Shown piece after piece: positions 11,470 through 37,567 of a stretch of 64,000 bases of DNA (the stretch's first letter is position 1; the number at the start of each line of letters is the position of its first letter). This DNA is from Candidatus Latescibacterota bacterium. GTDB lineage: Bacteria > Latescibacterota > UBA2968 > GCA-2709665. The DNA lies in the NCBI GenBank assembly GCA_965226795.1, contig CBDDDZ010000004.1:640001-704000 (forward strand). The letters are read 5' to 3'. A program made the position numbers and the translations under genes. The notes below the pieces were generated by a model. The model was given only the letters and a program-made list of their open reading frames with translations. It made no database searches and was not told the DNA's origin.

Positions 11470-11619
11470 TGTTCTGTCCCGGAAATAGATTGCCGAAATC
11501 AGGCCGACGAGTCGCCCGGCTCGCAAGGCACTTGAGCGAGGCGACCTGCGCAAGGTCGGAAACGCAGCGAGACGGGATGAATCGACGTAAAAACGGTGAT
11601 ATCTTTCCGGGACAGAACA
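11470..11619. mobile_element. MITE-like element, copy 1 (150 bp)
   Basis: Perfect 16-bp terminal inverted repeats TGTTCTGTCCCGGAAA / TTTCCGGGACAGAACA; interior is homologous to 32793-32954. Confidence 0.8.
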
Positions 11620-11734
11620 CCGGGTTCTTGCGGAACAATATCGGAACGATCTTAATTACGCAGATAAAATACCCGTTTTTGGAGCGTGGAACAAGCCTCT
11701 TGTGTAAATCTGATCTTACCCTTATCATAATTCC

Positions 11735-18796: not shown

Positions 18797-18825
18797 TTGA
18801 CACTCGTGATATGATTGTTTAATGT
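18797..18825 (+). promoter_or_regulatory. Sigma70-type promoter of the trp/aro operon leader
   Basis: TTGACA-N17-TAATGT. Confidence 0.6.
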
Positions 18826-18910
18826 TAGACCGTTCCTGTCGGCGTGGTCGTTCGGCGTAAGCAGGCGTCGGTGCGAGGCTGGCAGGAACCTGGATCATGG
18901 AGGATCGAAC

Positions 18911-19018
18911 GTGACGGATCATGGTCGGAACGGATTTCCCTGGCGTGGATATTTTTATCGCTCCTACCGGTGGTATTACCGGGAGGTCGCGGAACGTCAT
19001 GTCTGCCCACGAGAGTAA
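18911..19018 (+). CDS. Aromatic-rich leader peptide, 35 aa (MTDHGRNGFPWRGYFYRSYRWYYREVAERHVCPRE)
   Basis: GGAGG at 18899-18903, 7 nt before GTG; 2 Phe, 2 Trp and 5 Tyr in codons 9-23; followed by antiterminator/terminator; upstream of trpE. Confidence 0.85.
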   Translation: MTDHGRNGFPWRGYFYRSYRWYYREVAERHVCPRE

Positions 19019-19043
19019 ACCGTTGACAGAGTCGGGAAATGAG

Positions 19044-19072
19044 CCGTGGGCATCTGCTCACGGTTTTTTTTT
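19044..19072 (+). terminator. Attenuator intrinsic terminator
   Basis: CCGTGGGC-atct-GCTCACGG hairpin plus T9; its 5' arm CGTGGGCA can instead pair with TGCCCACG (19004-19011). Confidence 0.88.
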
Positions 19073-19213
19073 GATCCGGTCGAAACATAAGGCCGGTGCT
19101 GGGACAAAGCGCCAGTCCCGGCCGGCCGGCTACGGATGTATAACAATCGCTCGTCCGGCACAAAGGGACGCGGATGTCTGATTCGCGACTTCTGATATAT
19201 CTTTGGAAGCCAG

Positions 19214-20704
19214 GTGAATCTCGTGAGCACACCCGATTTGAAAACGCTAAAAACGCTGGCTGAAGGCCGGGGGGTGGTTCCGATTTCCAGGGAAATCCTG
19301 GGAGATACGGAAACCCCGGTATCCGCGTACCTCAAACTGCGGCACAGGAGTCCCTACAGCTTTCTTTTTGAGAGCGTGGAAGGGGGAGAGAAGATCGGGC
19401 GCTATTCTTTCCTGGGAGTGGAGCCGTTTCTTGCGTTTCGGTCGTGGAAATCCCGGATAGAGGTGGAGGATCTGAAGCGGGGTGAGGTCCGTGTATATGA
19501 AGGGTCGCCCATTGCCGAACTCAGGCGTCTACTGAAAAAATACCGTTCAGCGCAGTTGGATGGACTGCCCAGATTTACCGGAGGGGCTGTGGGCTATGTG
19601 GGCTACGACGCAATCCGGTTGGTTGAAAATATCCCCGACAGCACGCGCGACGACTACGGTCTGCCAGACGTCGTATTGCTTTTCTACGATACGCTTCTTG
19701 GCTTCGACAACGTTCGACAGAAGATCCATCTGATTTCAAACGTGCATACCTCCGGGGATATTGAAGAGAATTACCGGGCGGCGGAGGCGCGAATCGATGT
19801 GCTGGAACGGGCCCTGTGCGGGCCGATTCCCACGAACGGCGTTCCGGAAAGTGTGCCCCGGCGAGGAGCGCGCGCGATCCGGTCGAATACGGAGCGGTCC
19901 GTCTTTTTGGACAAGGTGCGGCGCTGCAAGGAGTATATCGTGGCGGGCGATATTTTTCAGGTCGTACTTTCGCAGCGCTTTGAGACCGAGATAACCGTCG
20001 GATCACTGGACATTTACCGCGCGCTTCGCACGGTGAATCCGTCTCCATACATGTTCCATCTGGATTTGAAAGAGGTTCAGCTTATCGGCGCATCGCCGGA
20101 GCTGCTGGTTAGGGTCGAGAACGGCGTCGTGCAAGTGCGGCCGATAGCGGGCACACGGTGGAGGGGGGCTACGGAAGAGGAGGATTCCGCTCTCGAGGCG
20201 AATTTGCTGGCAGACGAAAAGGAACGTGCGGAACACATTATGCTTCTGGACCTGGGTCGGAACGACGTGGGGCGGGTATCCCGTTACGATACGGTACGGG
20301 TTACGGAGCAGATGACGATTGAGCGTTATTCTCATGTGATGCATATTGTGTCCAATGTTCAAGGGCATCTCAAAGATGGCGTGGATGCCCTGGATGCGCT
20401 TTTTGCCTGTTATCCGGCAGGCACGGTTTCCGGCGCGCCCAAGATCCGCGCGATGGAGATTATCGACGAACTGGAACCTACACGCCGTGGACCGTACTCG
20501 GGGGCGGTTGGCTATATTGACTTTTCGGGCAACATGGATACGTGCATTGCCATTCGTACGATGGTTTTGCAAGGCAGCAACGCCTATGTCCAGGCAGGCG
20601 GGGGAATTGTGTTCGATTCCGTGCCGGAGAGCGAGCACCAGGAAACAGTAAATAAAGCGAAGGCGCTGTTTAAAGCGGTGGAATTGGCGGAAGGTGCGAT
20701 GTAG
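19214..20704 (+). CDS. trpE: Anthranilate synthase component I
   Basis: DTETPVSAY, FESVEGGEKIGRYSF, GDIFQVVLSQR, NPSPYM, PIAGTR, EKERAEHIML, PAGTVSGAPK. Confidence 0.96.
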   Translation: MNLVSTPDLKTLKTLAEGRGVVPISREILGDTETPVSAYLKLRHRSPYSFLFESVEGGEKIGRYSFLGVEPFLAFRSWKSRIEVEDLKRGEVRVYEGSPIAELRRLLKKYRSAQLDGLPRFTGGAVGYVGYDAIRLVENIPDSTRDDYGLPDVVLLFYDTLLGFDNVRQKIHLISNVHTSGDIEENYRAAEARIDVLERALCGPIPTNGVPESVPRRGARAIRSNTERSVFLDKVRRCKEYIVAGDIFQVVLSQRFETEITVGSLDIYRALRTVNPSPYMFHLDLKEVQLIGASPELLVRVENGVVQVRPIAGTRWRGATEEEDSALEANLLADEKERAEHIMLLDLGRNDVGRVSRYDTVRVTEQMTIERYSHVMHIVSNVQGHLKDGVDALDALFACYPAGTVSGAPKIRAMEIIDELEPTRRGPYSGAVGYIDFSGNMDTCIAIRTMVLQGSNAYVQAGGGIVFDSVPESEHQETVNKAKALFKAVELAEGAM

Positions 20705-20753
20705 TATCAGGGATATATACTGCCATTCTTCAACGATCACGTTTCATTGACCT

Positions 20754-21317
20754 ATGATTCTGGTAATCGACAATTACGATTCGTTCACGTACAATCTGGT
20801 TCAGTATCTGGGCGAGTTGGGTGCGCGGATGGAGGTGTTTCGGAACGATCAGATCGAATTGGACCAGATCTGCGCATACCGACCTGAGAAGATGGTGATT
20901 TCGCCCGGGCCATGTACACCGAACGAGGCGGGAATCTCCGTGGATCTGATCCGGCGGTTTAGCGGAGAGATTCCGATGCTGGGCGTCTGTCTGGGGCATC
21001 AGTGCATCGGACAGGCCTTCGGCGGCACCGTCGTGAGGGCGCCGGCGATTCTACACGGGAAAGTGTCCGAGATTCATCACGACGAACGTTCGATTTTCAC
21101 GGGGATGTCACAGCCCTTTATCGCCACGCGATACCATTCCCTGATTGTCGAACGGGACAGCCTGCCGGACTGCCTCGAGGTTACCGCGCAGACACACGAC
21201 GGAACAATAATGGGGTTGCGGCACAGGGAGTATCCGGTTGAGGGCGTGCAGTTTCATCCGGAGTCGATTCTGACGGCTGAGGGCAAAGTGTTGTTAGAAA
21301 ATTTCCTGAATGGCTGA
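20754..21317 (+). CDS. trpG: Anthranilate synthase component II (glutamine amidotransferase)
   Basis: [34 protein letters not shown]. Confidence 0.96.
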
Positions 21318-21366
21318 ATTCGTGGATCGGAAAGCTGGACCGGATCTCTGTTTACAGGCTGGGGAG

Positions 21367-22392
21367 ATGGCTATGGCGATACAGGATGCGATTGCGAAGC
21401 TGATTGAGGGACAGGACCTGACACGTGACCAGATGATCGGGACGATGGATCAGATTATGTCGGGTGGGGCGACGGACGCGCAGATCGGTGGGTTTCTGGT
21501 GGCTCTGCGTGTCAAGGGGGAGACAGTTGAGGAGATCGCGGGCGCCGCGGAGGTGATGCGGGAGAAGGCAACCCGGGTCGTGACGCGACACACCACGGTG
21601 GTCGATACATGCGGTACGGGGGGGGATGGGTCAGGAACGTTCAATATATCGACGGCCGCGGCGTTTGTGGCGGCCGGTGCCGGGCTGTGTGTGGCCAAAC
21701 ATGGGAACCGCGCGGCGTCCAGCCTGTGTGGCAGTGCGGATGTTTTGAAGGAACTGGGAGTAAATATCGAAGCATCGCCGGAGACGGTGGGGCGGTGTCT
21801 GGATGAGGTGGGCATCGGTTTCCTGTTTGCTCCGGCTCTGCACGGTGCCATGAAATATGCGATTGGACCCAGACGCGAAGTCGGCGTGCGCACGGTTTTC
21901 AACGCTCTGGGGCCGCTGACCAATCCTGCAGGCGCAACCCGACACCTGATCGGGGTATATGGTCGATCGCTTACCGAGAGGCTGGCCGAAGTGTTGCGTA
22001 CATTGGAATCAGAGCGGGCGTTTGTGGTACACGGGTCGGACGGACTGGACGAGATGACGACGACCGGGCCAACACAGGTGAGCGAGTTGAAGAACGGTAG
22101 TGTATCCACGTATGAGATCAGACCCGGGGATCTGGGCATTGCAAGGGCGGCGGCAGATGATCTGGCAGGGGGTAACGCCGAGACCAATGCGTCGATTCTG
22201 CGAAGGGTGCTGCATGGCGAGCCCGGTCATCGGCTGGACATTGTCCTGCTGAATGCGGCAGCCGCCATCGTAGCGGGGGGCGCCGTGGATGATCTGACGT
22301 CCGGTATGGAACTGGCCAGGGAGACCGTGGAATCGGGGCGGGCAATGGACAAACTGGAAAAACTGAAACTCGCCTCCGACGAGGGCAGCTGA
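21367..22392 (+). CDS. trpD: Anthranilate phosphoribosyltransferase
   Basis: DTCGTGGDG, FNIST, KHGNR, GPLTNP, DGLDE. Confidence 0.97.
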   Translation: MAMAIQDAIAKLIEGQDLTRDQMIGTMDQIMSGGATDAQIGGFLVALRVKGETVEEIAGAAEVMREKATRVVTRHTTVVDTCGTGGDGSGTFNISTAAAFVAAGAGLCVAKHGNRAASSLCGSADVLKELGVNIEASPETVGRCLDEVGIGFLFAPALHGAMKYAIGPRREVGVRTVFNALGPLTNPAGATRHLIGVYGRSLTERLAEVLRTLESERAFVVHGSDGLDEMTTTGPTQVSELKNGSVSTYEIRPGDLGIARAAADDLAGGNAETNASILRRVLHGEPGHRLDIVLLNAAAAIVAGGAVDDLTSGMELARETVESGRAMDKLEKLKLASDEGS

Positions 22393-22478
22393 TACCTGGC
22401 GATTTCGCCACTCACGCCCTGAACGTACCCCATGAACGAGATAATCGGGGTTCGCCCGGCGCAACGAAGACGGGAAGC

Positions 22479-23270
22479 ATGGCCACGATCCTGGATGAGA
22501 TTATCGCATATAAACGGCGTGTTGTGGCCGAGGCGAAACAACGGGTCTCACCCGAGGAGTTACAGACGCGGGCGGACCTTGCCCGTGAGCCGGGCTCGTT
22601 GATGGACGGCCTGACAGCCGCCGAGGATATCGCGCTCATAGCCGAGATCAAAAAGGCATCTCCGTCAAAAGGGGTGATTAGAGAAGATTTCGATCCGGTG
22701 GAAATCGGCCGGGCTTACGAGGAGAACGGCGCGTCGGCAATTTCCGTGCTGACGGATGTAAAGTATTTTCAGGGCTCCGACGAGAGTCTGACGGCGGTAA
22801 GCGAAGCCGTGGAATTGCCGGTGCTCCGGAAGGATTTCGTGGTTGATCCCTATCAGATCCATGAAGCCAGAACAATCGGTGCGGCGGCGGTTCTGCTCAT
22901 TGTTTCAGCGCTCTCGCAACGTGAATTGGCAGGGCTGCTCGCTGTTTGCAGGGACTCGAAATTGGACGCGCTGGTAGAAGTTCACACCAGAGAGGAAGCG
23001 AAGATGGCGCTGGACGCGGGAGCGGATCTTGTGGGGGTGAATAACCGCGACTTGAAGACGTTTCAAACGGACCTGCGAACCACATTCGACCTGATTGAAC
23101 ACCTGCCGGAAGATCTGGTAATCGTAAGCGAGAGCGGCATCGAGACCAGGGACCACGTCGTCCGATTGAGGGATGCCGGCGTGGATGCGGTGCTTGTCGG
23201 GGAACATCTGATGCGTCATCCCGATGTCGGTCGGACGCTTCGAACGCTGCTGGGGAAGGAAGGCGGCTGA
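22479..23270 (+). CDS. trpC: Indole-3-glycerol phosphate synthase
   Basis: IAEIKKASPSKG, SVLTD, LRKDF, GVNNRDL, VSESGI. Confidence 0.97.
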   Translation: MATILDEIIAYKRRVVAEAKQRVSPEELQTRADLAREPGSLMDGLTAAEDIALIAEIKKASPSKGVIREDFDPVEIGRAYEENGASAISVLTDVKYFQGSDESLTAVSEAVELPVLRKDFVVDPYQIHEARTIGAAAVLLIVSALSQRELAGLLAVCRDSKLDALVEVHTREEAKMALDAGADLVGVNNRDLKTFQTDLRTTFDLIEHLPEDLVIVSESGIETRDHVVRLRDAGVDAVLVGEHLMRHPDVGRTLRTLLGKEGG

Positions 23271-23278
23271 TTCAGACC

Positions 23279-23911
23279 ATGGTTCGGGTGAAGATTTGCG
23301 GCATCACGAACCCGGAGGATGCCCATTTTTCGGTTGCCCAGGGCGTGGACGCCCTGGGGTTCATCTTTTATGAGCCCAGCCCGCGTTACGTGCATCCTGA
23401 CCGCGTGAGCGAGATCGTGTCGGAGTTGCCGCCCTTCGTGACGCCCGTAGGGGTTTTCGTGAACACGGCCAGGGAGGAGATCCTGGGAATCGTGCGGTCG
23501 ACGGGGCTTCGGGCGGTCCAACTGCACGGCGACGAAACGCCGGCCGATTGCCAGGGGTATCCTTTTCCGGTCATCCGGGCATTGCGGGTCGGCGAGGGAT
23601 TCAAGCCTGCGTCGCTGGGCGATTATCCGGTAAACACGTTTCTGTTGGATACGGCAAAAAAAGGATGGTACGGAGGCACGGGAGAGACCTTTGACTGGCG
23701 GGTCGCAAGGGCGGCTGCGGCACACGGTCGGATCATTCTGTCGGGGGGGATTGATCCGCGAAACGTGGCGGAGGCGGTCCGAACGGTGAATCCGTATGCC
23801 GTGGACTGCGGCAGTGGCGTTGAGGCCGCGCCAGGCAGGAAGGACCACAACAGAATCGTGGAATTTCTCGAGACGCTTCGCTCCGTAACAAGTGTTCTGT
23901 CCCGGAAATAG
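23279..23911 (+). CDS. trpF: Phosphoribosylanthranilate isomerase
   Basis: VKICGIT, QLHGDE, GGTGETFDW; last codons and stop come from a MITE end. Confidence 0.96.
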   Translation: MVRVKICGITNPEDAHFSVAQGVDALGFIFYEPSPRYVHPDRVSEIVSELPPFVTPVGVFVNTAREEILGIVRSTGLRAVQLHGDETPADCQGYPFPVIRALRVGEGFKPASLGDYPVNTFLLDTAKKGWYGGTGETFDWRVARAAAAHGRIILSGGIDPRNVAEAVRTVNPYAVDCGSGVEAAPGRKDHNRIVEFLETLRSVTSVLSRK

Positions 23912-23918
23912 ATTGCCG
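23891..23918. repeat. Solo left-end fragment of the MITE family overlapping the trpF stop
   Basis: TGTTCTGTCCCGGAAATAGATTGCC is identical to the left ends at 11470 and 32794. Confidence 0.75.
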
Positions 23919-23978
23919 GATTCCGAGACCATCAGCGTTCTTGAACCCGCTAACCGAATCGATCTGGAGCCAAACATA

Positions 23979-25241
23979 TTGGATATCTTGGAAGATCTGG
24001 ACTTCCGGGGGCACGTTTTTCAGGTAACGGACGCCAGCGGACTCAAGGCGCGGCTCGACCAGGGGCCGATAACCCTTTATTCGGGGTTCGACCCCACGGC
24101 AGACAGCCTGCACGCCGGCAACCTGATTCCAATTCTGGGACTGCGGCGGTTTCAATTGGCCGGGCATCACGCAATCGGCCTTATCGGGGGCGGAACCGGC
24201 TTGATTGGCGATCCGAGCGGCAGCAAGGAAGAACGCCCGTTGAACCCGCCCGACATAGTCGCGGCATACACCGAGAAGCTGACAGAACAACTGGCCAAGT
24301 TCCTGGATTTCGAAACAGGAACGAATCCCGCCCAGGTGGTCTGCAATATGGGCTGGCTTTCCGAGCTCAAGGCAATTGACTTCCTGAGGGACACGGGCAA
24401 GCATTTCTCCATGGGTTATATGCTGGCGAAAGAGTCTGTGGCTTCCCGGCTGGAATCCGGAATATCGTTCACCGAATTCAGCTATATGGTCATTCAGGCA
24501 TATGATTTCATGGAGTTGTTTCGGACGCGAGGATGCGAGTTGCAAATTGGCGGGAGCGATCAATGGGGTAATATCACAGCGGGTATAGAGTTGATCCGGC
24601 GTCGGCTGGGCGAGCAGGCCCATGGACTGACGTTTCCGCTGCTTCAGAAAGCCGACGGGTCCAAGTTCGGCAAGACGGCATCCGGTACCGTCTGGCTGGA
24701 CACGGGAAGAACAACGCCCTATCAGTTCTACCAGCACTGGATCAATACGGATGACAGGGATGTCGTGAGGTTTCTGAAGCTGTTTACCTTTCTCTCAAAG
24801 GATGAGATTCGAAATCTGGAATTGGACGTGGCACAACACCCCGAGAAGCGAGAGGCACAGCGGGTGCTGGCCGAGGAGGTCACCACATTCGTACACGACA
24901 GGTCCGCCACCGACAGGGCGCGGCGGATTTCCGAGGCATTGTTTTATGGGGATCTGCGGGATCTGAGCGCGCAAGAGATAGAGGAAGGGTTCAGCGACGT
25001 GCCGTCTCATTCGCTCAATGGCGTTTCAGGAGTGGGTCTGGTCAATTTGCTGGTAGATGTCCGCATTTCAACTTCCATGCGCCAGGCGCGAGAAGACATC
25101 AGGTCCGGCGCGATTCATATCAATGGCCTGCGTTGCACGGATATGGGGCGGATCCTTGAACCTTCCGAGAGACTCGCAGGGAAATACCTGGTGGTTCGCC
25201 GGGGCAAACGCCGCTACTTTCTGGTGCGCTGGAACAATTGA
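23979..25241 (+). CDS. tyrS: Tyrosine--tRNA ligase
   Basis: YSGFDPTADSLHAGN, QIGGSDQWGN, KFGKT, C-terminal S4 domain; TTG start after GGAG. Confidence 0.96.
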   Translation: MDILEDLDFRGHVFQVTDASGLKARLDQGPITLYSGFDPTADSLHAGNLIPILGLRRFQLAGHHAIGLIGGGTGLIGDPSGSKEERPLNPPDIVAAYTEKLTEQLAKFLDFETGTNPAQVVCNMGWLSELKAIDFLRDTGKHFSMGYMLAKESVASRLESGISFTEFSYMVIQAYDFMELFRTRGCELQIGGSDQWGNITAGIELIRRRLGEQAHGLTFPLLQKADGSKFGKTASGTVWLDTGRTTPYQFYQHWINTDDRDVVRFLKLFTFLSKDEIRNLELDVAQHPEKREAQRVLAEEVTTFVHDRSATDRARRISEALFYGDLRDLSAQEIEEGFSDVPSHSLNGVSGVGLVNLLVDVRISTSMRQAREDIRSGAIHINGLRCTDMGRILEPSERLAGKYLVVRRGKRRYFLVRWNN

Positions 25242-25337
25242 TGGGCGGGTGTGTGGCCGCTTATGCTTATCGGAATGCAAATCAGGACATGATAATTCGG
25301 AACTCGGCAGGAAAAACAAAAGGAGAGGATTCCTTCC

Positions 25338-26315
25338 ATGAAAGCACCCTGGATTACCTTTCGGCCGGAACTCAAAGTACTTGATTGTACGATTCGAGAC
25401 GGCGGATTGATGAATGACCATCATTTCACCGATGATTTCGTGAAGGCAGTTTACGTAACCTGCGTTGAAGCAGGGGTCGATTATATGGAAATCGGGTACC
25501 GAAACTCCAAGGAGATGTTTCCAAAAGGACAGTTCGGACCCTTCCGACACAGTGACGAAGAAGATATCCGAAAGATTACGGGCGATCACGACCCTGAAAC
25601 GACCGGCCTGAAGCTCGCCATCATGGCCGATGCGGGCAAGAGCGATTGGGCTGAAGACATCCTGCCGGCCAGCGAGAGCGTGGTCAGCATGGTACGCGTA
25701 GCCTGCTATGTCGAGCAGATCCCTGAAACCGTCGAAATGCTGTGCGACGCACATGAAAAAGGATATGAAACCAGTTGTAACATTATGGCCATTTCGACGG
25801 TGCAGGAGGTCGAGATTGACCAGGCGCTGGAAGTCCTGATACAAACGCCGGTTGGAACAATATGCGTTGTAGATAGTTTCGGTGCATTGTACCGCGAGCA
25901 GGTGGATATGCTCATTCGGAAGTATATGGAAGCCGTCAGTGGAACGGGCAAAGAAGTGGGCATTCATGCGCACAACAACCAGCAACTGGCGTTCGCCAAT
26001 ACCCTGGAAGCGCTCATTCTGGGCGCTAACCGCGTTGATGCCACGGTGGACGGACTTGGCCGCGGCGCGGGAAATTGCCCGCTGGAATTGCTGCTCGGTT
26101 TCCTGCGCAATCCCAAGTTCAAAATTCGACCTGTCTACGAGCTGTTGGAAGACCATTTTGTCAAATTGCGCGGTGAACTGACGTGGGGGCCCCTCATTCC
26201 GTACAATATCACGGGTCAGCACAACCAGCATCCCCGCTCGGCAATGGCGCTTCTGGACGGGGACGACCGAAATCGTTATCTGGATTTCTACGATCAGGTG
26301 ATGAGGGAAATTTAA
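25338..26315 (+). CDS. HMGL-like (DRE-TIM) aldolase catalytic domain protein
   Basis: [29 protein letters not shown]; strong AGGAGAGG RBS. Confidence 0.85.
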
Positions 26316-26415
26316 TCGCCGGCGCCCGCGCTTCGGCAGTCCGCGAGAAAACCGCAGAGGTGGGAACGCCCGCCGAAGCGAGGGTCCGGAACGACGACGG
26401 CGGCTGAGTCCGCCT

Positions 26416-27662
26416 ATGTCACCAAACCTAAATGGAATGGAAACAATGGCACTTCTCAAGGCAGATGGATCCAACCGGACATGGCCCGACTCCGGGGGGC
26501 ATTTCGGACCCTACGGCGGGCGCTACGTACCGGAAACGTTGATGCCGTTGTTGGAGGACCTGGAGGCAGCCTACCGCGACGCGAAGGACCGTCCGGATTT
26601 TCAGGAGGAACTGGGCCGTTATCTCAGGGAATTTGTGGGAAGGCCGACGCCACTCTATTTTGCGCAGCGACTGACCGCCGAACTGGGCGGAGCCAGAATC
26701 TATCTGAAGCGGGAGGACCTCGCGCACACCGGCGCGCACAAAATCAACAATACGATACGATGGGGCAGGTCCTGCTTGCCAGGCGGATGGGCAAAACGCG
26801 GATCATTGCGGAAACGGGCGCAGGACAACACGGTGTGGCGACAGCAACCGTGGCGGCAATGTTCGGAATGGACTGCGAGATTTACATGGGCACCGAAGAC
26901 ATGGACCGGCAGGCGTTGAACGTGTTTCGTATGCGGCTTCTGGGGGCGAAAGTGACGGGTGTGGATTCGGGCAGCAGGACTCTGAAAGATGCGATCAACG
27001 AAGCCATCCGGGACTGGGTGACGAATGTGGAGGATACATTTTATATTTTCGGATCCGTCCTGGGACCTCATCCTTATCCGATGATCGTGCGCGATTTTCA
27101 GCGGGTAATCGGGGTGGAAACGCGCGAACAGATCCTGCAGGCCGAAGGCCGGTTGCCGGAATATCTGATCGCATGCGTCGGCGGCGGCAGCAATTCGATC
27201 GGGCTGTTTCACGCCTTTTTGGAGGACACGGAAGTGCGGATGGTTGGTGTCGAAGCGGGAGGGCATGGAATTGCCTCCGGCGACCATGCGGCGCGATTCC
27301 AGGGCGGGGATGTGGGCGTGCTGCACGGGGCAAGGATTTACCTCTTGCAGGACGAGAACGGGCAGATCGCGCTGACCCATTCGGTGTCCGCGGGCCTGGA
27401 TTATTCGGGTGTCGGGCCCGAGCACTGCCTACTGAGGGATGCGGGTCGGATCGAGTATGTGTACGCAACGGACGACGAGGCCCTGAAGGCCTTCCAGCTG
27501 TTGAGTCGTACGGAGGGAATCATCCCTGCACTGGAAAGCGCGCATGCGATCGCTTACGTGTCCAGAGCAGCGTCCGAAATGGGCAAGGATGCCGTTATCG
27601 TCGTGAATCTTTCAGGCCGTGGTGATAAAGACGTACAGCATGCGGCGAAGTACGTGGACTAG
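26416..27662 (+). pseudogene. trpB: Tryptophan synthase beta chain, frameshifted by a 5-bp duplication (may be an assembly artefact)
   Basis: One frame gives [13 protein letters not shown]...[15 protein letters not shown] and another gives MGQ...AETGAGQHG...SAGLDY...NLSGRGDKD; the junction reads ATACG-ATACG at 26750-26759. Confidence 0.9.
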
Positions 27663-27715
27663 GCGGTATTGGACCGATCGTTTTCACGTCGGAATCGAAG
27701 AATGGGGTCGATCGG

Positions 27716-28528
27716 ATGACAAGGATCGGGAAGCGTTTCGAAGCGTTGAAGAGAGCACACAGGACCGGATTTATAGCCTACATCACGGCGGGAGATCCGG
27801 ACCTGGCCACCACCCGCAAACTGGTGCCGGAGTTGGATCGGCGCGGGGTGGACATTCTCGAGTTGGGCGTGCCGTTCTCCGATCCACTGGCGGACGGGCC
27901 GGAGATCCAGCGGGCATCGCAGCGGGCCCTGCGGCATCGGGTGTCAATCAGCGATGTGCTGGATCTGGTGGCGGACCTGCGCCGGGAGACGGAGATACCG
28001 ATCGTGCTGTTTACGTATTTCAATCCGATGCACCGTTATGGTCTGAAACGGCTCGTCGACCGGGCGGCCGAAGCGGGGGTGGACGGTATTCTGGTGCTGG
28101 ATCTTCCGCCCGAGGAGGCAGCCGAGTACAAGGTTCTGATGTCGGAACGGGGATTGGATACGATTTTTCTAATCGCGCCAAATAGCCGTGAGGATCGCAT
28201 TCAACGGATTGCATCTCATAGCAGCGGGTTTGTGTATTACGTGTCACGCACAGGTGTAACAGGCGAACGGGACAGCCTGGAGGTGACGCTCGGGGCAAAA
28301 GTGGCGACCATCCGACGCCACACGTCGCAGCCGGTTGCGGTGGGATTCGGAATTTCGACGCCCGAACAATCCAGGGAGGTCGCAGGTTATGCCGACGCAG
28401 TCGTCGTCGGCAGCGCAATCGTGCGGCGTATTGCCCAGTGGCAAGCCGAACCGGATCTCGTTTCACAAATTGGGGCATTTGTGGAAGAATTAGTGCAACC
28501 GTTGAAGGGAGCATCCGATGGATCTTGA
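27716..28528 (+). CDS. trpA: Tryptophan synthase alpha chain
   Basis: YITAGDP, ELGVPFSDPLADGP, YYVSRTGVTG, VGFGIS, VVGSAIV. Confidence 0.97.
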   Translation: MTRIGKRFEALKRAHRTGFIAYITAGDPDLATTRKLVPELDRRGVDILELGVPFSDPLADGPEIQRASQRALRHRVSISDVLDLVADLRRETEIPIVLFTYFNPMHRYGLKRLVDRAAEAGVDGILVLDLPPEEAAEYKVLMSERGLDTIFLIAPNSREDRIQRIASHSSGFVYYVSRTGVTGERDSLEVTLGAKVATIRRHTSQPVAVGFGISTPEQSREVAGYADAVVVGSAIVRRIAQWQAEPDLVSQIGAFVEELVQPLKGASDGS

Positions 28529-28811
28529 AGACTGGCGCAAGGAAATCGACGCCCTGAATCAACAACTGTTGGAGCTTCTGAATAAGCGAGCCGAATGCGC
28601 ACTTGAGATCGGCAGGATCAAACAGGCAATCGAGCAACCTGTTTATGCGCCGGAGCGGGAGACATCGATCCTGAACCGAATCCGTCAACTGAACACGGGG
28701 CCCCTGGCCGACGAAGCGGTGCAACGGATATTTCAGCAGATAATCGATGAGTCAAGGCGGCTGGAACAGGAACACGGCGAACGGGAAACGGGGGGCACGA
28801 AACACCTCTGA
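28518..28811 (+). CDS. Monofunctional chorismate mutase (AroQ-type)
   Basis: LEDWRKEIDALNQQLLELLNKR, VYAPERE, IFQQIIDESR. Confidence 0.92.
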   Translation: MDLEDWRKEIDALNQQLLELLNKRAECALEIGRIKQAIEQPVYAPERETSILNRIRQLNTGPLADEAVQRIFQQIIDESRRLEQEHGERETGGTKHL

Positions 28812-28882
28812 ATCCGTTTGTGGAACCGGCCGCAACGGCAAACCATATTGACGGTCGCTATAGGAACCGGAGCTGAAGGCAC

Positions 28883-29911
28883 ATGGCGTTCAGAAGAATC
28901 CTGAAGATACCCACACCCGAAGCCGTGCTGGAAAAGATGTCGCTTCCAAAGGAGCTGAAGACCGTAAAGGAGGAACGCGACGCGGAAATCAGGGACATTT
29001 TCGCCCGCCGGAGCGATAAGTTTCTGCTGGTGATCGGCCCATGTTCGGCGCACAACGAAGATGCCGTATGTGAATACGTATCCAGGTTGGCGAAACTGCA
29101 GGAGGCCGTCCGGGAAAAGCTGGTTCTGGTGCCGCGCATCTATACCAACAAACCCCGCACAACCGGCGAGGGGTACAAGGGCATGGGGCATCAGCCGGAC
29201 CCGCGCAAGGCGCCGGACATATCCGAAGGTATTTATGCGGTTCGTCAGATGCATATCCGGGCTGTCCAGGAGTCCCACCTGACGGCGGCCGACGAAATGC
29301 TGTACCCGGGCAACCTGCCGTATGTCGAGGATCTGCTGAGTTATATAGCCGTGGGTGCACGCTCCGTGGAAAATCAACAGCACCGGTTGACCTGTAGCGG
29401 CGTCGGCGTCCCCGTTGGAATGAAAAACCCGACGGGAGGAGATCTTTCGGTAATGCTGAACGCGATCCATGCCTCGCAGATTCCCCACGTCTTCATTTAT
29501 AACGGTTGGGAGGTGGGCACCGACGGCAATCTCCTGACACACGCAGTGCTTCGGGGCGCCGTGGATGTTAACGGGCGCAGTATTCCGAACTATCACTTCG
29601 AAGACCTCATGTACGCGGCGGAACTCTATCGGCAGCGGCAGCTTGCCAATACCACAATCGTTGTGGATACGAATCACAATAACTCCGGCAAGCAGTTCAG
29701 TGAACAGCCCAGGATCGGGTTGGAGGTGATACGCAGCCGGCGGAGTTCAGAGATTTTAAACGACATGATCCGCGGGTTGATGGTGGAGAGTTATCTGGAT
29801 GAGGGCTCACAGAATGTAAATGACGGCGTGTTCGGCAAATCCATTACCGATCCGTGCCTGGGGTGGAAAGATTCCGAGGCGTTTGTCAAAGAACTGGCGG
29901 AAAGGATATGA
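28883..29911 (+). CDS. aroF: DAHP synthase, class I-alpha
   Basis: IGPCSA, KPRTT, VGARS, VGMKN, LRGA, DTNHNNS, GKSITDPCLGW. Confidence 0.92.
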   Translation: MAFRRILKIPTPEAVLEKMSLPKELKTVKEERDAEIRDIFARRSDKFLLVIGPCSAHNEDAVCEYVSRLAKLQEAVREKLVLVPRIYTNKPRTTGEGYKGMGHQPDPRKAPDISEGIYAVRQMHIRAVQESHLTAADEMLYPGNLPYVEDLLSYIAVGARSVENQQHRLTCSGVGVPVGMKNPTGGDLSVMLNAIHASQIPHVFIYNGWEVGTDGNLLTHAVLRGAVDVNGRSIPNYHFEDLMYAAELYRQRQLANTTIVVDTNHNNSGKQFSEQPRIGLEVIRSRRSSEILNDMIRGLMVESYLDEGSQNVNDGVFGKSITDPCLGWKDSEAFVKELAERI

Positions 29912-29989
29912 AAGCGTACGGGTTCTGGAATCCGGAGGAGATTGGAATGTCTTCTAGACGCTTTTGCCGGGTCTTCCGAGGATAACGGT

Positions 29990-31102
29990 ATGGCGAATGA
30001 TCCTCCGTTTGCGCGTGAGACGATCGCATTTGTTGGTGTTGGGTTGATCGGCGGATCTCTTGGTGTGGCACTCAAGGGTCTGGGTATCGGCCGAAGCATC
30101 GTTGGCATCAGCAGGCAGGAGACGCTGGATGCAGCCCTCGAGTTGAATGTAATCGACGCAGGCTATCGCTATGAGGACCTCGAAAGGGGGATTGGCGAAG
30201 CGGCGCTGGTTTTCCTGTGTACACCCATTGTACGTATTCTGGACCTTCTGCCACAGGTGCTGGGGGCGGCGCGGAAGGGTGCGGTCGTGACCGATGTGGG
30301 CAGCACCAAGCACGCGATTGTTTCCGCGGCGACGGCCCATCAACGTGATGGCGTGTATTTTGTGGGCGGGCACCCGATGGCCGGGTCGGAACATCGCGGG
30401 GTAAGCGCGGCGGATCCATTCCTGTTTCAGAACGCAATTTATGTGTTGACGCCGTCACCGGACACGCCCGAATTCGTGGTCGAAAAGCTCGCGCGCCTCG
30501 TAAGGGCGCTCGGAGCGAGACCCATGAGGATGACTCCTCAGGAACACGACAGGGCGGCGGCGGCGGTGAGTCACCTGCCACAGATGATGGCCACAAGCCT
30601 GGTGTCCATGATCGGACGGATGACCGAGGTCGAAGGGTTGCCGATAAGGATGGCGGCGGGTGGGTTTCGGGATCTGACACGCATTGCATGCAGCCCGTAT
30701 GAAATGTGGCGGGATATCTGCCATACGAACGCGGCCCCGATCCGTGAGATGATCGATCTGTATATCGAGTCGCTGACAGCGATGCGCGGAGCAGTGGATC
30801 ATGACCGGCTGGAGCAGGCATTTGTCTACGCCAATCGGGTACGCGGGCAGATTCCGAAGGACTCCAAGGGGTTTTTGCATCCTCTATTCGAAATTCTCCT
30901 GGTCGCGGAAGACAGACCGGGCGTGATTGCCGACGTCGCTCAGACCCTGGCCGGGAAAAATATTAATATCAACGACATCGAGGTATTGAATGTACGGGAG
31001 GGGGAAGGAGGCACCATCCGCATCGGGTTCGATTCGCGTCCATGCGCGGATCAGGCTGTAGACGTGCTGGGGAAGGCGGGATACAACGTCAGGCTGAGAT
31101 AA
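29990..31102 (+). CDS. tyrA: Prephenate/arogenate dehydrogenase with C-terminal ACT domain
   Basis: GVGLIGGS, DVGSTK, GGHPMAGSE, SHLPQ, GGFRDLTRIA, DRPGVIA. Confidence 0.94.
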   Translation: MANDPPFARETIAFVGVGLIGGSLGVALKGLGIGRSIVGISRQETLDAALELNVIDAGYRYEDLERGIGEAALVFLCTPIVRILDLLPQVLGAARKGAVVTDVGSTKHAIVSAATAHQRDGVYFVGGHPMAGSEHRGVSAADPFLFQNAIYVLTPSPDTPEFVVEKLARLVRALGARPMRMTPQEHDRAAAAVSHLPQMMATSLVSMIGRMTEVEGLPIRMAAGGFRDLTRIACSPYEMWRDICHTNAAPIREMIDLYIESLTAMRGAVDHDRLEQAFVYANRVRGQIPKDSKGFLHPLFEILLVAEDRPGVIADVAQTLAGKNININDIEVLNVREGEGGTIRIGFDSRPCADQAVDVLGKAGYNVRLR

Positions 31103-31181
31103 ACGGAAGGATCCGGAACGGGAAACGATGGAACGAAAGAGATCGCTATCCGTCCTTTTGTGACTCGATTTTGAAGAAGGC

Positions 31182-32495
31182 GTGGCTTTGAAATTCGCGG
31201 GTTCAGTAATTTCCCGGGACACGATCAGTCCCTCGCCGGGGCTTGTGGGGGCGTGCGACCTCCCCGGCGATGCCAGCATGTCGATTATGGCCCTTGTGCT
31301 GTCGTCAATATCCGATGGAATCTCACGGATTCACAGGTGTTCCCAACGACGCGAAGTCAAGCGAACCGGAGAATTGCTGGCGGAACTCGGGATTTCGGTG
31401 GCGTGGGACGGTGAGACCGCAACGGTGACCGGCGGCCACATGGAGGCGCCGGCCGACGTGCTGCGCGTGGGTGGGTCCCTTGTTCTGTTTTCCTGTCTTG
31501 CGGGATTGCTGTCCAATGCGCCCTTTGTGACCAGACTTTCCGGGGTTCGGGCGGATGCCGACGTCGACCGGCTTTTCGACGGGCTCCGCGCGTTGGGCGC
31601 ACACGTGAACATTCCGGTTGAAGACCGGACATCGGCGGGTGTCGGAGGGGGTAAGTTAACGCCCGGATCCTTCCGTGTCGGAGCTCCGGATATAGCGGTG
31701 AAGTGTGGAATGCTTATGGCCGGGCTGGGTGTGGGGGGACCGGTTGAACTGGTACAGGACACGGGCGGGGATGACGACCTGGAAGTTTTGCTGCAAGCAG
31801 CAGGATGCGGGCTGAAAAAGAGCCGGATGAAGGGCGCCGGAGGTCATCGGTTGTTGTTGGAAGGACCGGTACGGCTCCGTGGCGTTACACACGAGTTGCC
31901 GGGCTGCTCGGATGCGGGGCTGTTTCTTGCCCTGGCCGCGGCGATGTTGAAACGGTCTGAGTTGACCGTAACCCATTTCGGAATGGATTCGAGAAGCCGC
32001 AGGATCGTGGATATTTTGCGCCGTATGAACGTATCCATGGATATGGAGCAATACCGGACGGATTCCGGTTTTTCCGTGCGTCGAGTTCGGATCAGGGGGT
32101 CCGAATTGCGTGGAATAAGAATCGCTGGCGCAAATGCCAGACTCTTCAGCGACGTGCTCCCACTCCTGGCGGTCGCGGGCGCGGTTTCGCGGGGTGAAAC
32201 GATCATACGGGATGCCGAGGCGTTGAGAGACGGACCCGTAGACTGCATTTCGGTTTTGGTGGAAAACCTCAGGAAGATGCAGATTCAAGTCGGGGAGATG
32301 CCGGATGGGATGGTTGTGAAGGGCGGGCAACTGCAGGGTGCCGAACTGGATGCCGGCGGCGACATCCGTGTGTCAATGGCACTCGCACTGGCGGCGCTGG
32401 CGAGCGAAGGGGAAACACTTGTAATGAACGCCGGGCCCGTGGACCGGAATTTTCCGGGGATCACAAATCGACTGGCTACGGTATTGGAGACGTAA
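31182..32495 (+). CDS. EPSP synthase (AroA)-fold protein with degenerate active site
   Basis: 437 aa, collinear with class II AroA motifs and located after tyrA, but catalytic motifs read PGDASMSIM, GGSLV, DIAVKC, LRDGPVDCI, DIRVSM. Confidence 0.8.
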   Translation: MALKFAGSVISRDTISPSPGLVGACDLPGDASMSIMALVLSSISDGISRIHRCSQRREVKRTGELLAELGISVAWDGETATVTGGHMEAPADVLRVGGSLVLFSCLAGLLSNAPFVTRLSGVRADADVDRLFDGLRALGAHVNIPVEDRTSAGVGGGKLTPGSFRVGAPDIAVKCGMLMAGLGVGGPVELVQDTGGDDDLEVLLQAAGCGLKKSRMKGAGGHRLLLEGPVRLRGVTHELPGCSDAGLFLALAAAMLKRSELTVTHFGMDSRSRRIVDILRRMNVSMDMEQYRTDSGFSVRRVRIRGSELRGIRIAGANARLFSDVLPLLAVAGAVSRGETIIRDAEALRDGPVDCISVLVENLRKMQIQVGEMPDGMVVKGGQLQGAELDAGGDIRVSMALALAALASEGETLVMNAGPVDRNFPGITNRLATVLET

Positions 32496-32587
32496 GTCGT
32501 TTGAATCGTTCAGGTGCCCGCCGCTTATGTTGGCGGCAGGGGCTGCACGAGACCACGTGGGTCAATCATCGGTACGAGGAGAGTCTT

Positions 32588-32728
32588 ATGAGACTGGTTG
32601 TCAGGTTGTTCCTTCTGGCGTTGCTCGTGTTCCTGGGAGGCGTGGTTTTTATTCGGTACACCTACAACTGTTCCTGGAAGGAGAGTTTTGCAATTGCCGA
32701 CCAGTTTGTGTCGGACCTGACCCGTTGA
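32588..32728 (+). CDS. Small single-TM membrane protein, 46 aa
   Basis: GAGGAG RBS; MRLVVRLFLLALLVFLGGVVFIRYTYNCSWKESFAIADQFVSDLTR. Confidence 0.7.
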   Translation: MRLVVRLFLLALLVFLGGVVFIRYTYNCSWKESFAIADQFVSDLTR

Positions 32729-32792
32729 GCAACGCGTTGCCCGTTGCGGTGCGGGGAATCTCAATCGGCCAGACGTAAAATCGGGTATCGCC

Positions 32793-32954
32793 GTGTTCTG
32801 TCCCGGAAATAGATTGCCAGAATTCGGCAGCCGAGTCGCCCGGCTGGCAAGGCGCCTGAGCGAGGCGACCTGGGCAAGGTCGGCGAGCGATGGCAACGCA
32901 GCGAGGCGGGATGAATCGGCGGATGAATGGTAACATATTTCTGGGACGGGACAC
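32793..32954. mobile_element. MITE-like element, copy 2 (162 bp)
   Basis: Ends GTGTTCTGTCCCGGAAA / TTTCTGGGACGGGACAC; interior aligns by eye with copy 1 plus a ~12-nt insertion. Confidence 0.8.
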
Positions 32955-32976
32955 TGATAGGTCAGGGGAGTCTGTT

Positions 32977-33843
32977 TTGAGTATTGTCTCAACCACGCGG
33001 TTGCTTGGGGTAATCGGGGATCCCATTGCCCATTCGTTATCGCCGGACATGCACAATGCGGCCATAAGGAATCTTGAAATAGACTACTGTTACGTAGCCT
33101 TTCACGTATTGCCGGATGGGGTTGAATCGGCGCTTCAGGGTATGCGCGCCCTGCAGATCCGGGGTTTGAACGTAACCCTTCCACACAAGACTGCGGTGAT
33201 GGCGCACCTGGACCGGATTTCGGTAGAAGCGCTGGCCGTGGGCGCGGTGAATACGATTTCTTTCAGGGACGGCGAACTGGTCGGGTACAATACCGACGTG
33301 TACGGGTTGGCTACCGCGCTGGAGCGGACCGCGGGCCTCGCCGTGCTGCCGGAGCATTGCGTGATTCTCGGCGCGGGCGGCGTGGCGCGGGCTGCTGCTT
33401 ATGCGCTGGCTACGCAAAACGAGGTGCGGCGGGTGAGCATTCTCAATCGAACCGTTGCCCGGGCGGAGGCGCTCGCGCGTGATATGGAACGGACCACCGG
33501 CAAGTCCATCGACGCCGGCGATCTGACGACAGACACCCAGACGAGGCGGTTCGCGGATGCCGGCCTCGTCGTAAATTGTAATTCGCTGGGGATGTATCCG
33601 AACGTGGAGCGGACCCCCCTGGCGGATACAGACCCGATACACTCCCAACTGGTACTCTACGATACGGTTTTCAACCCGCTGGATACGCTGCTGATGCGGC
33701 AGTTTCGATCGGCGGGCGCGCCGGCTTTCGGAGGGCTGGACATGCTGGTGCACCAGGGTGCGAGTTCGTTTACCATCTGGACGGGAATCGAGCCGCCCGT
33801 CGACGTCATGAAGCAGGCGGTAATCGGCCGGTTTCGAGCGTAG
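32977..33843 (+). CDS. aroE: Shikimate dehydrogenase
   Basis: GDPIAHSLSP, NVTLPHK, GAVNT, NTD, LGAGG, NRT, GLDMLVHQG. Confidence 0.95.
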   Translation: MSIVSTTRLLGVIGDPIAHSLSPDMHNAAIRNLEIDYCYVAFHVLPDGVESALQGMRALQIRGLNVTLPHKTAVMAHLDRISVEALAVGAVNTISFRDGELVGYNTDVYGLATALERTAGLAVLPEHCVILGAGGVARAAAYALATQNEVRRVSILNRTVARAEALARDMERTTGKSIDAGDLTTDTQTRRFADAGLVVNCNSLGMYPNVERTPLADTDPIHSQLVLYDTVFNPLDTLLMRQFRSAGAPAFGGLDMLVHQGASSFTIWTGIEPPVDVMKQAVIGRFRA

Positions 33844-33845
33844 CG

Positions 33846-34565
33846 GTGGCGCGGTCCAATCTGCAGGAACGCCGGGAAAAGCGGACCCTTGTGCGTCAGA
33901 TGTTCGACGGCATAGCCGGTACGTACGATCTGTTGAACCATCTGTTGAGCGCCGGCATGGATATTCTCTGGAGACGATGGACAGTCGACGCACTGGAATT
34001 GCAGGCAGGCTGGTGGATCCTGGACCTTGCAACGGGAACGGGGGATCTGGGCCTCGAAGCGGCGGCGCGTGATCCGGGAGTGCGGGTTGTGGGTGCGGAC
34101 CTGTCCCTGCCGATGCTTCGGCTTGGAAACAAAAAACTGAATAGAAGATCCGGCCAACAGTTTCTCTTATGTGGAGACGCGGAGCGGCTGCCGTTTCCCG
34201 ATGAGCGGTTTCATGCCGTAACGATTGGTTTCGGCGTACGGAACTTTTCGGAACTGTCCGTTGGCCTTCGGGAAATACAACGGGTTTTGCGCCCCGGAGG
34301 CCGGTTGGCAATTCTGGAGTTTTCCCGGCCCAGGGCGTTTCTATTGCGCAGGGTCTACTTTTTTTATTTTAAATTCATCCTGCCCGGGATCGGCCGGCTT
34401 GTTTCCCGGAATCCTCTGGCGTATCGGTATCTTTATGAGTCTGTTATGGATTTTCCTGAGGGAGAGGCATTCCGAAGCCGGCTGACGCAGGCCGGTTTTC
34501 TAGATCCGGTGGAACGTCGGTTGACCTTTGGGATTGCGACCATCTATTTGGCTTCAAAACCGTAA
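33846..34565 (+). CDS. menG: Demethylmenaquinone methyltransferase (UbiE/MenG)
   Basis: MFDGIAGTYDLLNHLLS, LDLATGTGD, FGVRN, AYRYLYES. Confidence 0.92.
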   Translation: MARSNLQERREKRTLVRQMFDGIAGTYDLLNHLLSAGMDILWRRWTVDALELQAGWWILDLATGTGDLGLEAAARDPGVRVVGADLSLPMLRLGNKKLNRRSGQQFLLCGDAERLPFPDERFHAVTIGFGVRNFSELSVGLREIQRVLRPGGRLAILEFSRPRAFLLRRVYFFYFKFILPGIGRLVSRNPLAYRYLYESVMDFPEGEAFRSRLTQAGFLDPVERRLTFGIATIYLASKP

Positions 34566-34583
34566 CGACTCTTTGCCCGTCAT

Positions 34584-34928
34584 ATGGTCGTTATTAATTC
34601 TTGCCCCAGTTTTATTGGGCGCATCGCTTGTGGCCTTTTGGCGGTTGCGGCAGAACGTGCCTGGCAACACCTGCGTGCGCATCGGTTTGATGGCTTTTAC
34701 TTTCGACGGCAACAAATCATCGACAGCTTTATTGTCGATTTCTACTGTCATTCAGTCGGATTGGCAATTGAAGTCGATGGCGAGGTTCGCCAGAATCAGG
34801 TTGCTTATGGTGCAAAACGAGACGGCATTCTCAAAGCGCGAGGATTCCAAGTTTTACGCATTGCAAATGTTGAAATTCGCACGAATTCAGATGGCGTTCT
34901 CCAATCAATCAGAGCTTATATAAAATAG
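34584..34928 (+). pseudogene. DUF559 (Vsr-like) endonuclease domain, probably 5'-truncated and degenerate
   Basis: AERAWQHLR...FRRQQII..FIVDFYC...LAIEVDG...RD..L...GFQVLRI; lower GC than neighbours; usual N-terminus and the His after EVDG are missing. Confidence 0.7.
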
Positions 34929-34951
34929 TGTATACTCAACACTTAGTTCAA

Positions 34952-34991
34952 CTCCCCCTTTCCTTGTAGGAGGGGAAACTGGGGGAGAGGT
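34952..34991. repeat. REP-like palindrome next to the DUF559 gene
   Basis: CTCCCCCTTTCC-TTGT-AGGAGGGG...GGGGGAGAGG, similar to the CCCTCTCC..GGAGAGGG palindromes that often flank DUF559 genes. Confidence 0.5.
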
Positions 34992-34999
34992 CATCCTTT

Positions 35000-36703: not shown

Positions 36704-36972
36704 GTCACGGATAGCCGTACCACCCTTCCGAAAACGGCGCTGAACGCCATCGGAATCCTGATTTCGTCATTATTGAAGGCACCCTGGAGATATTTTTCTC
36801 AGAGGTGGTTGTGAATGGAAACCGGACTGGCTGCGCTTGATTCTGTTACCCCGTTAATGAAGGGGCGACACGCACGCCATTGTACTTCATCCAGAAAGAA
36901 TTCCGCGCCGATCGTAGCCGCTCAGATCAATTGTACAGATCGCCACGCGCGGGCATGGCGGGGGCCCGTGCC

Positions 36973-37518
36973 GTGAACCGGTTGCAGGGCAGACAGATTT
37001 TCCTGACGGGGTTCATGGCGACCGGCAAGAGCAAGATCGGGCGGATTCTGGCGCAGCGCCTGGGTCGGATATTTGTAGATACCGATGCGTTGATCGTGGA
37101 GACGGCCGGGAAGTCGATACCCCGGATCTTTGCGGAAGACGGAGAGACCGCCTTCCGTCGTATCGAGCGCAGTTGCGTGGTGCGGGCGGCCGGGATGAGG
37201 GAGGCCGTGATTGCTCTGGGTGGCGGCGCGGTCACACACGAGGAGAACCGGGATACGATTCGCGCATCCGGTGTGTGCCTGTGTCTGCGGGCATCTGCTG
37301 AGACCATCTTCACGCGCCTGCGCAGGACAGAAGGAGAACGGCCGCTGATGGCTGGATTGAACGATGAAGACCGGATGGCAAAGATCCGGTCGATGCTGGC
37401 CGCCCGGGCGCCGTTTTACGACCGTGCGGATGTATTCGTGGAGTCGACGGAGTGTCGCACGCTGGAAGAGACCGTTGAACTGGCAGTGTCGGCTTTGGAA
37501 GGTCTTGAATTGCAATAA
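36973..37518 (+). CDS. aroK: Shikimate kinase (start uncertain)
   Basis: LTGFMATGKS, FVDTD, IFAEDGETAFR, ALGGGAV, RPL. Confidence 0.95.
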   Translation: MNRLQGRQIFLTGFMATGKSKIGRILAQRLGRIFVDTDALIVETAGKSIPRIFAEDGETAFRRIERSCVVRAAGMREAVIALGGGAVTHEENRDTIRASGVCLCLRASAETIFTRLRRTEGERPLMAGLNDEDRMAKIRSMLAARAPFYDRADVFVESTECRTLEETVELAVSALEGLELQ

Positions 37519-37567
37519 GGATGTTGGAAGACCACTGCCTATGGGATCTCAAGTCGTACAGAGCAGT

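Follow-up and report, generated by a model that had tools for sequence, protein, structure and literature searches.

The leaders of the E. coli ilvGMEDA and thr operons are multivalent. Both attenuators are listed in PMC1183508, which together with PMC11802643 also summarises the general attenuation mechanism of trp-type leaders, and the ilvBNC leader of C. glutamicum responds to three amino acids (PMC11857589). Among aromatic leaders, the C. glutamicum aroR peptide carries Phe-Tyr-Phe and responds to Phe, not to Tyr (PMC11802643, PMC4046766), so that the presence of a codon is no proof of sensing. Predicted attenuators lie before tyrA-containing supraoperons, such as the aro-phe-tyr-trp supraoperon of Desulfovibrio vulgaris (PMC1173090, Table 7), the Shewanella aroF leader is listed as an “attenuator sensing tyr-tRNA” (PMC2659441), and in PMC4833913 we found nothing on aromatic mixes. 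With ilvBNC and aroR as examples, the view that accompanied the original prediction for the locus described here, of classic leaders sensing for the most part a single amino acid, understates the precedent. Within the literature searched, we found neither a leader with Trp, Tyr and Phe codons together nor any attenuation in Latescibacterota; subscription journals lay mostly outside this search, so this is not proof of their absence. Mixed aromatic leaders may be listed in Vitreschak 2004, Lopatovskaya 2010 and Neshat 2014, or in their supplements.

We describe here a leader located upstream of trpE in a stretch of 64,000 nucleotides from a member of the Latescibacterota, hereafter the window, all features being given on the + strand. 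As a class, comparison of the sequences makes it very probably a conserved leader-peptide attenuator. More specifically, we propose, with a probability of about 0.7, that it is a ribosome-mediated attenuator sensing mainly Tyr-tRNA and also Trp-tRNA, Phe-tRNA being a weaker possible input. The mechanism would be a textbook one, and the novelty lies in its Tyr-dominated, mixed three-aromatic form in an uncultured marine bacterium.

The leader locus and its gene cluster

The leader is preceded by a predicted sigma-70 promoter (18797..18825) composed of TTGACA (18797-18802), a spacer of 17 nt and TAATGT (18820-18825). Its -10 hexamer matches three of the six consensus positions, and the promoter is absent from the listing of a promoter scanner run on the locus; the motif TTGACN-N16-18-TANNNT is present upstream of 70 of the 81 homologous leaders, as a plain motif count. 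A 5' hairpin of the leader RNA (18832..18889, -34.6 kcal/mol) is specific to the genus, being short or missing in other genera. The Shine-Dalgarno sequence GGAGG (18899..18903) is located 7 nt 5' of the GTG; an SD-like motif is found in all 22 leaders of family f1 but in only 4 of 19 in family f4. The leader ORF (18911..19018) has 35 codons, from the GTG at 18911 to a TAA ending at 19018, and encodes the peptide MTDHGRNGFPWRGYFYRSYRWYYREVAERHVCPRE, in which codons 9-23 (18935-18979) form a control region with five Tyr, two Trp and two Phe codons.

Within this region, segment 1 (GGCGUGGAUA, 18942..18951) covers Trp-Arg-Gly-Tyr codons and is predicted to pair with segment 2 when free of ribosomes. 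Folding also gives an inner hairpin, CCGGT/ACCGG, on Tyr-Arg codons (18961..18985), which is not kept as such outside the genus. Segment 2 (TGCCCACG, 19004..19011), the 5' arm of the putative antiterminator, would lie beneath a ribosome positioned at the stop codon; it is complementary to the 5' arm (CGTGGGCA, 19045-19052) of an intrinsic terminator made of segments 3:4 (19041..19072), with a stem at 19041-19066 and T9 at 19064-19072. The promoter, ribosome-binding site, ORF, hairpin, complementarity and terminator of the original prediction were thus all recovered. The locus presents the general layout of a ribosome-mediated attenuator, namely a short upstream ORF with a start codon and a ribosome-binding site, and an intrinsic terminator between this leader and the first gene. 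The spacer between terminator and trpE, which here contains a G+C-rich hairpin (window 19090-19130), differs in length among members of the genus, with extremes of about 15 and 250 nt.

Nine aromatic codons within 15 place the leader ORF at the top of 120 comparison ORFs from the whole genome, all of them short, SD-led and with a terminator-like site 25-110 nt beyond their end, the next best having five. Against proteome frequencies, the binomial P is 2e-5 for F+W+Y, 3e-4 for Y, 0.04 for W and 0.20 for F. The leader had been noted to appear in the ORF track only as the tail of a 67-aa ORF, which is rejected. This longer ORF starts at TTG 18815, 5' of the -10 box, so that its start would be absent from the leader transcript, and within the genus gaps disrupt the reading frame of its 5' portion. 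An overlapping ORF of 86 aa is likewise rejected, its ATG not being conserved.

The putatively regulated cluster extends over about 19 kb (19214..38671), with all its genes on one strand and in an order kept in relatives, from which co-transcription is probable. It begins with trpE, trpG, trpD, trpC, trpF, tyrS, an HMGL-like gene, trpB (frameshifted) and trpA, and continues with chorismate mutase, DAHP synthase, tyrA, aroA, aroE, menG/ubiE, DUF559, argS, aroK and aroB. The genes of the shikimate, Trp and Tyr branches and tyrS, initially assigned to the operon, are all present, but the cluster is longer than was proposed and reaches argS, aroK and aroB (38671). No gene for a tyrosyl-tRNA synthetase other than tyrS (23892..25241) was found in the genome, and argS (35000..36703), also found in a single copy, is a conserved member of the cluster, present in 31 of the 34 loci reaching aroE and conserved across the class. 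The prephenate dehydratase gene pheA is located elsewhere in the genome and the cluster contains no Phe-specific gene.

Several other features of the window were observed. The sole trpB of the genome is frameshifted at a 5-base tandem repeat (window 26750-26765), which may be an assembly error or a true inactivation. In some genomes (L031, L032, L065, L068) the tyrS at the same cluster position is of a divergent TyrRS type, which suggests an in-place replacement. A putatively MITE-like intergenic repeat of about 150 bases with inverted ends is found at window 11470-11620 and, within the cluster, at 32794-32954, with a similar start at 23892, and an exact 47-base tandem duplication is present at window 47760-47853.

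Four RNA runs, including sponge metatranscriptomes, hold the region and were considered as assembled contigs only. Two of them, which belong to different studies, each contain a short contig of its own for the leader that ends at 19031-19036, with nominal depths of 55 against 8-11 and of 12 against 3-6 for the leader and trpE contigs respectively, values taken from contigs only, whose depth cannot rank the parts of the locus. One of these leader contigs begins upstream of the promoter, with loose ends, and in the remaining two runs the leader ORF is not covered by any contig. This pattern does not enter into the arguments below.

Conservation and alternative RNA structures

A TrpE match was obtained in 105 of 168 genomes of the phylum and upstream DNA was taken for 103 of them. 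In 84 of these 103 genomes (81 curated, 2 cut at their 5' end and 1 probable), trpE has a leader ORF and a terminator in front of it, as do 29 of the 30 nearest loci; the closest named TrpE relative, from Latescibacteria bacterium UBA2968 (73% identity), has the same leader type. Such a leader was not found before trpE in families f9 (0/2), f10 (0/12, one with only 69 nt upstream) and f12 (0/3), where in most loci another gene extends up to trpE, and the f2 contigs G027 and G036 are too short to be judged. With the query used, 57 of 76 f4 genomes (G056-G110 and others) have no TrpE match, which suggests a wide loss of tryptophan synthesis. A named collection provided 75 trpE loci with enough upstream DNA, which yielded eight candidate leaders: one from Latescibacterota, six of Trp type and one from Acidobacteriota with mixed Trp/Tyr codons. 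Trp-type trpE leaders with a similar terminator arm occur in Thermodesulfobacteriota and Deltaproteobacteria records (L131, L143 and L174, a set that includes the Acidobacteriota leader).

The mixed nature of the control codons is conserved: Tyr, Trp and Phe codons are all present in each of the 53 leaders of families f1-f3 and in 75 of the 81 leaders overall, and at least one Trp codon is found in all 81, sometimes at different positions in sister species of genus g8. Inside the ORF, 7 of 9 gaps have a length divisible by three, versus 4 of 27 in the flanks, a difference that exists in part by construction. Across the 15 genomes of the genus, all six variants at the six core Tyr/Phe columns are synonymous or Tyr-to-Phe; F9 is changed in 6 genomes, while W11 is lost in 2 and W21 in 5. 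When 12 genera are pooled, 34 variants at 93 aromatic columns lead to a non-aromatic residue and 136 at 215 other columns are non-synonymous.

Covariation was evaluated on an alignment with one sequence per genus for 24 genera, the relatedness of which inflates such tests. The antiterminator is paired in 85% of cells, with 27 two-sided changes distributed over six of its eight pairs; its covariation score was reached by none of 500 shuffles, and slid registers pair in 29-47%. The terminator is paired in 94% of cells, with two-sided changes at 8 of 11 pairs. The antiterminator arms switch plainly between genera, from GGGCA/TGCCC to GGACGCA/TGCGTCC and GGACAT/ATGTCT, and duplexes with their own partner reach -16.2 kcal/mol versus -13.9 kcal/mol with swapped partners (permutation P = 7e-5). 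Taken alone, the 8-bp complementarity of the source genome is not significant (shuffle P = 0.10), and per-genus shuffle tests give P <= 0.05 in only 11 of the 24 genera, the source genome not among them; the antiterminator is therefore supported by covariation. The C-terminal residues of the peptide vary along with the terminator arm and, in genus g10, segment 2 is located 3' of the stop codon in two of three leaders, so that the constraint there acts on the RNA. The trpL/pheL-type geometry proposed for the source genome, together with its mixed F/W/Y codons, is thus supported by the aligned trpE upstream regions, as a conserved aromatic uORF with a covarying antiterminator and terminator.

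Folding with ribosome masking agrees with this geometry in part. With A-site codons 9-27 the predicted probability of the 2:3 helix is about 0.9 or more, and it falls to 0 from codon 30-31, the value at the stop being 0 because the masking covers everything upstream. At full length, however, the terminator prevails at P 0.85-0.87 for any ribosome position, and the switch would have to be kinetic, since it is not seen at equilibrium. In the absence of a ribosome, the model prefers 2:3 after segment 3 emerges; before this, the 1:2 helix has a probability of 0.78-0.85 for RNA ending at 19035-19044, which becomes 0 from codon F9, while a ribosome at Y22-Y23 lets this helix re-form behind it (P 0.2-0.8). 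The CCGGT/ACCGG hairpin first described over the control codons is present, but the likely 1:2 helix in these models is GGCGUGGAUA (18942-18951) with segment 2 rather than that hairpin alone. For 21 of 24 genera, segment 2 has a pairing probability within the ORF above 0.5 (a plain count), and the mean P(2:3) at aromatic stalls is at least 0.75 in 16 of 24, the values for g1 and g6 being too low as their segment-2 anchor was misplaced. In four genera the start of segment 2 precedes the stop by 20-28 nt, which places it at the limit of what a real footprint covers. According to covariation and the masking model, the antiterminator is exclusive with the terminator, free on a stall and covered at the stop.

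In the mechanism that we propose, low charged tRNA-Tyr (mainly) or tRNA-Trp would open the aromatic/tyrS cluster. A ribosome initiating at the GTG at 18911 and stalling at codons 9-23 would hide segment 1 and leave free segment 2, which lies 25 nt beyond the last Tyr codon and could pair with the 5' arm of the terminator as it emerges, allowing the polymerase to read through. With ample charged tRNA, the ribosome would reach codon 30 or the stop and cover segment 2, the terminator would form, and transcription would end at about 19070.

Control codons and the amino acids probably sensed

Control codon content follows the synthetase carried in the cluster. The leaders linked to tyrS (n=47; f1, f2 and part of f3) have on average 4.7 Tyr, 1.6 Trp and 3.3 Phe codons, those linked to trpS (n=19; f4, where trpS takes the place of tyrS) 1.1 Tyr, 2.9 Trp and 1.0 Phe, a contrast that amounts to about two clades on the TrpE tree. 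The leaders linked to neither (n=7) have 1.6 Tyr, 2.1 Trp and 2.1 Phe, and eight leaders with too little downstream DNA are left out of these averages; genome G034 keeps three Tyr codons despite an unlinked tyrS. The stand-alone synthetase genes show related leaders. A Trp-type leader precedes the stand-alone trpS in 18 of 20 f1 loci (mean 2.4 Trp, 0.9 Tyr and 0.7 Phe), and none was found before trpS in nine f2 loci. In f4, 17 of 27 regions before the stand-alone tyrS have a Tyr-type leader and a terminator-like hairpin, with Trp at 0.3% and Phe at 2.5% of codons; these leaders were selected for at least two Tyr codons and the trpE leaders partly by aromatic content, so that the respective enrichments are partly circular.

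These f4 Tyr-rich leader ORFs with terminators (L233-L262, L223) constitute a candidate tyrL attenuator family. At G000:C3:139595-139672 (L192), a Trp-type leader and terminator, conserved in f1, precede the stand-alone trpS, and a second trp-like leader (Arg-Arg-Trp-Trp-Phe, a hairpin and a T run) is found just 3' of trpS at G000:C3:140832-140990; with no clear same-strand gene after it, it is possibly a remnant.

Upstream of pheS lies a T-box-like leader whose specifier is UUC (Phe) (G000:C5:682482-682780; L222:431-729); it scores 69 bits against a cut-off of 93 bits, and inspection by eye revealed no leader before pheA in the source genome. One T-box match each was also seen in 25 of 31 related genomes, seven of them above the cut-off, the matches being counted irrespective of their position relative to pheS. 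The control codons of the trpE leader are cognate to downstream products for Tyr and Trp, and for Phe only via the common-pathway genes; in the genus, Phe accounts for 5.5% of leader codons for a background of 4.2%. Given the synthetase swap, this weak Phe enrichment and the T-box-like leader of pheS, we rank Tyr as the main signal and Trp as the second, with about even odds for Phe and arginine as an outside possibility.

The arginine codons lead to a broader reading, in which the leader would respond to four inputs (Tyr, Trp, Phe and Arg) and serve a cluster that combines the aromatic pathway with the sole TyrRS and ArgRS genes, its codon mix being re-tuned in evolution to the joining synthetase, with a tyrL leader serving the sister-family tyrS. 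In frame, Arg makes up 15.8% of leader codons; the corresponding figure is 9.5% for the other frames and 7.7% for the proteome. The Arg fraction is lowest (8.7%, from a single genome) before the f8 cluster, which lacks argS. The leaders of the stand-alone tyrS (18.7% Arg) and of trpS are likewise rich in Arg, and these codons may merely provide G+C for pairing; we hold this broader reading to be doubtful. An attenuator set by Tyr-tRNA alone, the Trp codons being ancestral remnants held by the segment-1 RNA and the Phe codons drift from Tyr, is also unlikely. It draws on the predominance of Tyr in the genus (14.8% of leader codons versus 4.5% for Trp), on the single losses of each Trp codon and the interchange of Tyr and Phe, on the location of W11 in the 1:2 helix and on the aroR precedent. 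Against it, Trp is retained in every curated leader, even if never losing both Trp codons in 15 genomes is not significant alone, and the pure Tyr leaders of the stand-alone tyrS almost lack Trp and Phe, whereas the tyrS-linked trpE leaders have 5.1% Trp and 10.2% Phe overall.

We prefer the mainly Tyr- and also Trp-sensing attenuator, and three further explanations appear far less probable. MiaA-type A37 modification affects tRNA-Phe, tRNA-Tyr and tRNA-Trp, and every control codon begins with U, so that the leader might report the general decoding speed of such codons or the modification state of tRNAs instead of amino-acid supply. E. coli pheA is indeed derepressed in miaA mutants (PMC3082878), but ordinary attenuators are known to receive such effects as a side input, which does not make them a purpose of their own, and the codon content tracks the downstream synthetase and pathway genes, which renders this explanation very unlikely. 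Slightly more improbable is a nascent peptide that, like TnaC, itself halts the ribosome when a free aromatic amino acid is bound, or one that acts in trans, a role reported for S. meliloti peTrpL. The peptide is rich in Arg and aromatic residues and has a recurrent C-terminal Cys-Pro in f1-f3, but this Cys-Pro follows the terminator sequence and is untranslated in two of three g10 leaders; no residue-level motif, and in particular no arrest motif of the TnaC type, is common to the families. Moreover, biosynthetic genes are expected to be switched on by stalling here, as suits starvation rather than excess. Least probable of all is a T-box, a riboswitch, a TRAP-like protein-dependent antiterminator or a fixed terminator with an ORF present by chance: the sequence GGTGGTA is similar to a portion of the T-box motif and the organism has a T-box-like element elsewhere, but the frame, start, SD and codon class of the leader are conserved. 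The T-box model (RF00230) detects the pheS leader and not the trpE leader, and neither TRAP nor TrpR was found in the genome (96% complete), so that all three types of control are rejected at trpE. At the gathering score Rfam gave no match to the leader, and among hits up to E 10 there was nothing meaningful; likewise, no profile match was obtained with the Rfam Trp_leader and Phe leader families or with the leader-peptide families of NCBIfam and Pfam.

Comparison with described attenuators

With this leader, ribosome-mediated attenuation would reach into an uncultured phylum, in a Tyr-dominated, three-aromatic form absent from Rfam, Pfam and NCBIfam. It offers a natural experiment in which one RNA scaffold carries control codons shifting between Trp-rich and Tyr-rich with the synthetase of the operon. 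The small size of the element should make the weighting of several codon types in one attenuator measurable, and a use as a multi-aromatic biosensor is conceivable.

The closest layout is that of trpL-trpE of E. coli and Salmonella (RF00513), with which it shares its position before trpE, a short ORF with Trp codons, a U-tract terminator, mutually exclusive 1:2, 2:3 and 3:4 helices (the 1:2 helix being a prediction here) and a stop codon near segment 2. It differs by its 35 codons, the predominance of Tyr over Trp, a whole-pathway cluster with tyrS and argS, the absence of an Rfam match and a genome in which no TrpR was found. The pheL-pheA and pheM-pheST leaders (PMC3082878, PMC11802643) have similar runs of aromatic codons, and pheST provides a case of a synthetase under leader-peptide control; both concern Phe only, whereas the synthetase here is TyrRS and is embedded in a biosynthetic cluster. 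The branched-chain leaders (ilvBNC, ilvGMEDA and thr) share the OR-gate principle, a single leader containing codons for more than one end product of a branched pathway; they concern another amino-acid family and are unrelated in sequence. The D. vulgaris supraoperon likewise joins a whole-pathway aromatic cluster to a predicted attenuator, the passages on it in PMC1173090 describing neither a leader peptide nor control codons. Finally, C. glutamicum aroR-aroF resembles the present leader by its mixed aromatic control codons, located before a DAHP synthase gene, but it has three control codons without Trp, whereas nine control codons of three kinds are found here before trp, tyr and aro genes.
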